A program made the position numbers and the translations under genes. Below are positions 1 through 711 of a stretch of DNA of 7,198 bases, piece by piece. The notes under the pieces were generated by a model. It was not told where the DNA came from, did no database searches, and worked only from the letters and a program-made list of their open reading frames with translations. Origin of the DNA: a virus (Duplodnaviria; Heunggongvirae; Uroviricota; Caudoviricetes); the IMG/VR virus record IMGVR_UViG_2617271072_000001. One strand, 5' to 3'. Position 1 is the stretch's first letter. Each line of letters starts with the position of its first letter.

Positions 1-414
1 TGGGCAGGAAATCGCTGGTGCTATCTGGCGGTTGTTATGGATCTTTTTGCCCGCAGGGTTATCGGCTGGAGTCTGTCAGCGCATGCCGATACCGCACTGA
101 TAAGCAGTGCCCTGCGGATGGCCTATGAGACGCGTGGCCAACCCCGGGATGTCGTGTTCCATAGCGACCAGGGAAGCCAGTATACAGGCCTTAAATATCA
201 ACAACTTCTCTGGCGTTGCAGAATAAATCAAAGCGTCAGTCGGCGGGGAAACTGCTGGGATAACAGCCCCATGGAACGCTTCTTCCGCAGTCTGAAAACA
301 GAATGGGTGCCAACGAATGGTTACGCAGGCAAGGACGAGGCCCGGCAGCAAATTAATGATTACATATTGAACTACTACAACAGCGTCAGACCTCACCATT
401 ATAACGGTGGCTGA
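1..414 (+). CDS. IS3-family transposase OrfB (DDE integrase core), 5'-partial; possible frameshift near 409-414
   Basis: Frame +1 is open from base 1 (the listed ORF 37-414 is the same frame). Motifs typical of the IS3 OrfB C-terminal region: [27 protein letters not shown]. After the stop at 412-414 a different frame continues as [10 protein letters not shown]... to a stop at 474-476, consistent with the usual C-terminal tail and suggesting a 1-bp indel or natural truncation. Confidence 0.75.
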
Positions 415-483
415 CGCCGGAAGAGTCAGAGAACAGATACCATTTTTACTGTAAAACCGTGGCCAATATTACTTGACCACTAC
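1..483 (+). mobile_element. IS3-family insertion sequence, right-hand portion (window begins inside the element); right boundary approximate (about 478-486)
   Basis: Transposase-type ORF runs off the left edge of the window. Ren homology on the minus strand stops abruptly near 483-484, where the predicted Ren C-terminus becomes unrelated residues (VVVK then stop). Exact terminal inverted repeat and target-site duplication cannot be defined without the left end. Confidence 0.7.
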
Positions 484-711
484 AAAAACCAGGTTCGTGC
501 TCATCTTTCCTTCCCGTTCTTCCCTGGTAGCAAACCGGTAATACACCGTTCGCCAGACCTTACCTTCGATAACCAGAAGACCTGCCCGTGCCATTTTAGC
601 CGCGGCCTGATTTATGCTGGTTACTGTTGCGCCTGTTAGCGCGGCAACGTCCGGCGCACAGAAGCTATTATGCGTCCCCAGGTAATGAATAATTGCCTCT
701 TTGCCCGTCAT
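469..711 (-). pseudogene. ren: ren (Rex-exclusion resistance), C-terminal coding region replaced by IS sequence
   Basis: The first ~76 residues (MTGKEAIIHYLGTHNSFCAPDVAALTGATV...) match lambda Ren as recalled; the ORF then ends VVVK-stop inside IS-derived sequence, about 20 residues short. Start codon at 711-709 overlaps the P stop (ATGA overlap), as in lambda. Confidence 0.7.

Follow-up and report, generated by a model that had tools for sequence, protein, structure and literature searches.

An IS3-family element of intact type in the non-essential ren gene of a lambda-like prophage, with a transposase frameshift that is most probably an artefact

The window analysed here (the whole stretch of 7,198 nucleotides from IMG/VR record IMGVR_UViG_2617271072_000001) carries a lambda-type early region in reverse, running through ren, P, O, cII, cro, cI (2993-3643, +), an N-like gene (3957-4229, +), sieB (-), cIII, kil, gam and bet. 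The immunity region (2993-4827) contains a 216-aa cI of the LexA/S24 type, followed by the pL region and the N-like gene, with sieB on the opposite strand. Neither rexA nor rexB is found between cI and N in the window, and this is thus a prophage without the Rex system, from which lambda Ren, a protein that confers resistance to Rex exclusion, takes its name. The Rfam model for the lambda cIII thermoregulator (RF01804) matches at 5517-5575 (+) with 88.5 bits (gathering score 50), overlapping the start of cIII. At the left end of the window ren is interrupted by an insertion sequence (IS), and the features of this region are as follows.

1-484, plus strand: right-hand 484 bp of the IS, ISCfr6-like with IS911-like ends (alignment to full copies).
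1-414, plus strand: orfB catalytic frame as read in the window, with a premature TGA at 412-414 (Pfam, list of open reading frames (ORFs), alignment to IS3 InsF).
409-410, plus strand: site of a 1-bp deletion, GG here and GGG in all other copies (alignment to intact copies).
411-476, plus strand: displaced last 21 transposase codons and the normal stop at 474-476 (translation of the intact IS).
459-484, no strand: inverted repeat of the right IS end (IRR), ending ...CCACTACA with a terminal CA (20/26 against the left inverted repeat).
469-711, minus strand: chimeric ren' ORF of 80 aa, lambda Ren 1-76 (484-711) joined to VVVK and a stop from the IS (469-483) (ORF list, lambda alignment).
485-487, no strand: right copy of a 3-bp target duplication AAA, its register ambiguous in the A run (occupied against empty site).
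708-1409, minus strand: replication gene P (ORF list, annotation of the identical region in 13KWH46, lambda gene order).

The first 484 bp of the window match IS3-family transposase genes in 868 E. coli records at 99.8% identity and correspond to IS positions 774-1258 minus one G, the left part of the IS lying beyond the window edge. Position 484 is the terminal A of the right IS end, where the element closes in CA. The product of 1-414 is matched by the Pfam models rve (E=1.4e-20, 73.9 bits against a cutoff of 32.6), rve_3 (1.3e-11) and rve_2 (2.6e-06), and it includes two residues of the DDE triad, the second Asp in HSDQG and the Glu in NSPMERFF; the remaining Asp falls just to the left of the window. 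The full element, read in E2863 (L002:1228-2485) and identical in 13KWH46 (L003:7944-9201), is 1258 bp long with TG...CA ends (TGTAGTGG...CCACTACA), and its inverted repeats agree at 20 of 26 positions with the terminal 8 bp identical. In these full copies orfA begins at position 73, IS position 333 (outside the window) has an A AAA AAG slippery site and the orfAB fusion is annotated by PGAP as a programmed frameshift, while the fused 392-aa OrfAB of the identical element scores 360.6 bits against NCBIfam NF033516 ‘IS3 family transposase’ (cutoff 160). With its rve/DDE domain, orfA and orfB with a slippery site, imperfect TG...CA repeats and short target duplication, the element has every tested defining feature of the IS3 family.

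Within the family the element can be named provisionally. One truncated copy, identical to 1-484 save for the missing G, carries the PGAP label ‘IS3-like element ISCfr6 family transposase’, and the 6 places of this IS sequence in an O121:H19 genome agree with the six intact ISCfr6 copies reported in an STEC O121:H19 strain (PMC9397093; Nishida et al. use the ISCfr6 name). For the name ISCfr6 this label and the agreeing copy number are indirect evidence. IS3 itself, likewise 1258 bp long, was considered and rejected, with zero nucleotide similarity and an OrfB identity of 34%. IS911 resembles the element in its length of ~1.25 kb, its orfA and orfB with an A AAA AAG -1 frameshift site, its TG...CA ends and its 3-bp duplication, and the terminal sequence of the window IS (TGTAGTGGCACAC...TTTGGCCACC) is presumably closely like the IS911 left end; IS911 is nevertheless a different element. 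IS911 and IS3 transpose by copy-out/paste-in via a circle with a 3-4-bp spacer (PMC2909936), and from its family membership the window IS would have moved in the same way through a circular intermediate. The E2863 copy lies inside the head-tail joining gene of another prophage and has unmatched 3-bp flanks (TCT left, GCC right), which suggests a secondary rearrangement or IS-IS recombination at that site.

On the other side of the junction, phage lambda aligns at 100% from window position 484 rightward (query 285-684, its positions 200-400), and residues 1-76 of the minus-strand product are identical to those of lambda Ren (76/76, NP_040633). As in lambda, the gene directly follows P, its start overlapping the P stop at 708-711. 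Lambda Ren has 96 residues in full, whereas here the last 20 (KECRQSAAMKRVLAVYGVKR) are swapped for VVVK, so that the product is cut after residue 76 and closes with a four-residue IS-encoded tail. The ren' product nonetheless matches PHROG 142 ‘Ren-like exclusion protein’ (E=2.5e-27), and an identical 80-aa protein carries the annotation ‘protein ren’ (WP_148116983.1); neither Pfam nor NCBIfam contains a Ren model. An earlier reading from sequence alone (the sequence-only reading) had placed an IS3-family element in ren, with Ren homology ending near 484 and the ORF finishing in IS-derived sequence, and both points are borne out by the rve domains, by the 868 records that match 1-484 (leaving no doubt of an IS3-family match for 1-483) and by the lambda Ren identity up to the junction. 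Ren homology does not continue in frame beyond 469, the VVVK and stop coming from IS bases 469-483. The placing of the insertion at the ren/nin boundary in that reading has to be corrected, since the IS lies between ren codons 76 and 77 of 96, about 60 bp short of the ren stop, and so inside ren. The occupied site in 13KWH46 reads CTTAAAA[IS]AAAACC and the empty site in lambda CTTAAAAACC, from which a 3-bp AAA duplication follows.

Residues 1-65 of Ren (window 517-711, -) match a PHROG of MarR-family (winged-helix) transcription regulators (E=1.1e-10). Because the IS leaves this N-terminal two-thirds of Ren intact, a folded DNA-binding-like domain may survive in the shortened product. For the outward TTGACC in the IRR (473-478), inspection by eye found no acceptable -10 at 16-18 bp that would complete a hybrid promoter, and none came up in the promoter scan here either.

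The left IS end and the left target duplication lie outside the window and are taken from relatives with the identical junction, which supply the leftward extension that the sequence-only reading had proposed for recovering the whole IS and whatever genes follow it. The identical ren::IS junction is present in 7 complete E. coli genomes (among 5426) and in further draft assemblies, and at least 24 contigs in the public protein index encode the exact 80-aa Ren'. IMG/VR gave no match to the junction 38-mer. In the relatives (13KWH46, fEC.1, 8GC and others) the whole IS, the AAA duplication and a 3' remnant of ren, in 13KWH46 its last 87 bp, are followed by tR2 and then ninB, and the gene order to the left of the remnant runs through ninB, a Dam methylase, NinE, NinX, rusA, Q and the lysis, terminase, portal, capsid and tail genes. 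At their right end xis and int adjoin ybhC, the lambda attB locus. With the whole IS, its duplication, the ren remnant and the downstream genes all retained, the event is, judged by comparison with these relatives, a simple insertion and not a truncation, the IS adding 1.26 kb and deleting nothing. The junction is already annotated by RefSeq in several genomes and is a feature of a known, routine kind.

The insertion is old enough to be common to one prophage lineage represented in dozens of assemblies. Six of the seven complete carriers have essentially identical host flanks and look clonal. Comparison of 8GC (L021/L013/L009) with 13KWH46 (L020/L005) revealed a ~22-kb block that starts near the lysis genes, includes ren::IS and int and may extend about 0.9 kb into ybhC. 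The two strains are identical in it wherever compared, ~2.5 kb of 8GC inside the block excepted. Outside the block the late and morphogenesis genes of 8GC are ~1-7% diverged, its tail-fibre genes are replaced and both host flanks are ~1% different. An identical block amid diverged flanks indicates that recombination has exchanged the early region, together with its IS, at some time after the insertion. The block was also considered as proof of spread by a viable phage, an argument that we dropped, as homologous or chromosomal recombination explains it equally well. A small number of pseudogenes occur in accessory regions of the relatives. They comprise a fragment of DUF1364, an ead/Ea22 gene with a frameshift and a tail gene that is frameshifted in one assembly. 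The last of these (13KWH46, L005:1735-2312) is intact in the otherwise identical fEC.1 prophage, and its annotated frameshift is likely an assembly-level indel rather than decay.

The transposase frame of the window stops at 412-414, and the sequence-only reading, noting a tail that continues in another frame to 474-476, had proposed a 1-bp indel. Alignment of the IS part of the window to other IS3-family copies confirms the frameshift in the sequence as the loss of a single G at 409-410: the reference reads GGTGGGCTG and the window GGTGGCTG, the sole difference over 484 bp. The end of the PGAP CDS in the E2863 copy (L002, 2477) corresponds to window 476. The restored tail contains a GGL(T/S)PE..EN motif and aligns with the IS3 InsF C-terminus (...RRHSWCGGLSPEQFEN), a match from which GGG is taken to be the functional state and the window stop to lie inside a conserved motif. 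Were 412-414 instead the natural end of the transposase, the downstream frame would have to be tail-like by chance. Nothing speaks for this beyond the window's own ORF, and it is contradicted by the extra G in every other copy, by the PGAP annotation that reaches the normal stop and by the InsF alignment of the restored tail, leaving it with next to no probability.

The origin of the missing G is best judged against the rest of the window. Compared with the 13KWH46, fEC.1 and 8GC prophages, the whole 7198-base window shows 0 substitutions and exactly three 1-bp indels, all in homopolymers and all private to it (G3 to G2 at 409-410, A4 to A5 at 3701-3705 and T5 to T6 at 5493-5498), with ~17% of the window lying in runs of three or more. 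The A5 run is intergenic between cI and N, and the T6 run is intergenic ~20 nt upstream of the cIII thermoregulator. Substitutions dominate the natural divergence of E. coli sequences, as known from mutation-accumulation studies, and a set of differences made up of indels only and confined to homopolymers has the pattern of sequencing or assembly error. Consistent with this pattern, the G deletion is probably a sequencing or assembly artefact of this record, and taken together with the two further homopolymer insertions it suggests homopolymer errors in the source record. A genuine, recent and private mutation, by which OrfAB and OrfB would lose their last 21 residues including the GGLTPE tail, is a rather unlikely origin. 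The stop does fall within the motif shared with IS3 InsF and within the rve_3/rve_2 Pfam match, prophage IS copies are free of selection, homopolymer slippage is common in nature and real slippage mutations also prefer homopolymers; runs of G3, A4 and T5 are, however, short for slippage. Of the 3304 places that a 70-bp probe centred on the site matched in 5426 genomes, 0 were full-length perfect matches to the deletion allele, every full-length match having GGG, and a 40-mer with the deletion had no counterpart in GTDB representative genomes, in IMG/VR or in JGI metagenomes, whereas the wild-type 40-mer was found in a public collection. All other ren::IS copies examined (L003/L005, L006, L013, L015-L019) have GGG, and a real mutation would leave the two other private indels and the zero substitutions in 7.2 kb to be accounted for. 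The frameshifted transposase of the sequence-only reading thus stands as a property of the sequence, but the 0 substitutions and three homopolymer indels make it probably not biological. If the deletion were real, the IS copy would be non-autonomous, yet mobilisable in trans by other copies.

As to the effect on the prophage, Ren loses its last 20 residues and gains VVVK, and the pR transcript, to which the IS transposase gene is antisense, is lengthened ahead of tR2 by 1.26 kb of untranslated IS RNA. The pR-sense strand of the IS has one weak terminator-like site only, no more than in shuffled sequence, and a promoter scan found no sigma-70-like promoter inside the IS. In the relatives the tR2 hairpin (AGGCCTGC...GCAGGCCTTTTTATTT) lies just past ren, between ren and ninB. 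Polymerase that starts at pR gets past tR2 and on to Q only after modification by N, which also makes it resistant to Rho-dependent polarity. The window encodes a 90-aa N-like antiterminator at 3957-4229 (PHROG 271, E=9e-34; annotated N in 8GC by PGAP). Since pR transcription is already antiterminated by N to pass tR2, we infer that late-gene expression would be largely unaffected and that the IS would be little obstacle.

The sequence-only reading had drawn the opposite conclusion, that the IS cuts the replication genes off from nin and Q and marks a defective, decaying prophage. What can be said for decay is that 1.26 kb of untranslated sequence now separates P from Q in the pR operon, that the pR-sense strand of the IS has a weak terminator-like hairpin and that the related prophages have a few accessory pseudogenes. 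On the other side, relatives with the identical junction keep all modules from int to tail fibres, including nin, Q, lysis and morphogenesis genes, and the 22-kb ren::IS block is 100% identical in two hosts, having been exchanged since the insertion with no further decay. Ren is, moreover, dispensable for lambda growth in established lambda genetics, nor is it required for P-lethality or replicative killing, and in the open-access papers searched the Ren/Rex phenotype is mentioned in passing only. With ren non-essential, N present and tR2 already to be overcome just downstream, the inference of a defective prophage is left without support, and we regard decay as improbable.

Homologues of ren have been struck elsewhere. 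In the DLP12 prophage of K-12 MG1655 (L014:2185-3748) IS3C, a 1258-bp IS3-family element, interrupts renD after its first 93 bp. As in the window, the interrupted gene is a ren homologue that follows P-type genes, and the interrupting element belongs to the IS3 family; the IS and the position in ren are different, and DLP12 is grossly deleted. A DLP12-like prophage of LD91-1 (NZ_CP192621.1, L012:2944-4201), in which emrE follows ren, carries the same ISCfr6-like IS at a point 45 bp closer to the end of ren, with a separate TAC target duplication. The window lineage, LD91-1 and K-12 renD together represent three independent IS3-family hits in ren homologues, a 290-bp gene, which may hint at a hotspot or at a site where insertions are tolerated. 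The idea that IS3-family elements land repeatedly in the ren genes of lambdoid prophages, or find a ‘safe harbour’ there, is very doubtful; were it true, it could reflect target preference or selection for Ren loss, rather than chance survival in a dispensable gene.

Taken as a whole, the left end of the window is best read, at a probability of roughly 80%, as the right end of an intact-type IS inserted in the non-essential ren gene of a lambda-like prophage, with a frameshift that is most probably an artefact. The biological weight of the finding is small, as it is routine for a dispensable prophage gene to carry an IS. Before decay is called from a lone frameshift in the gene of a mobile element, that gene should be compared with sibling copies, and the presence of an IS ahead of tR2 in the pR operon is, alone, no evidence of a defective lambdoid prophage.
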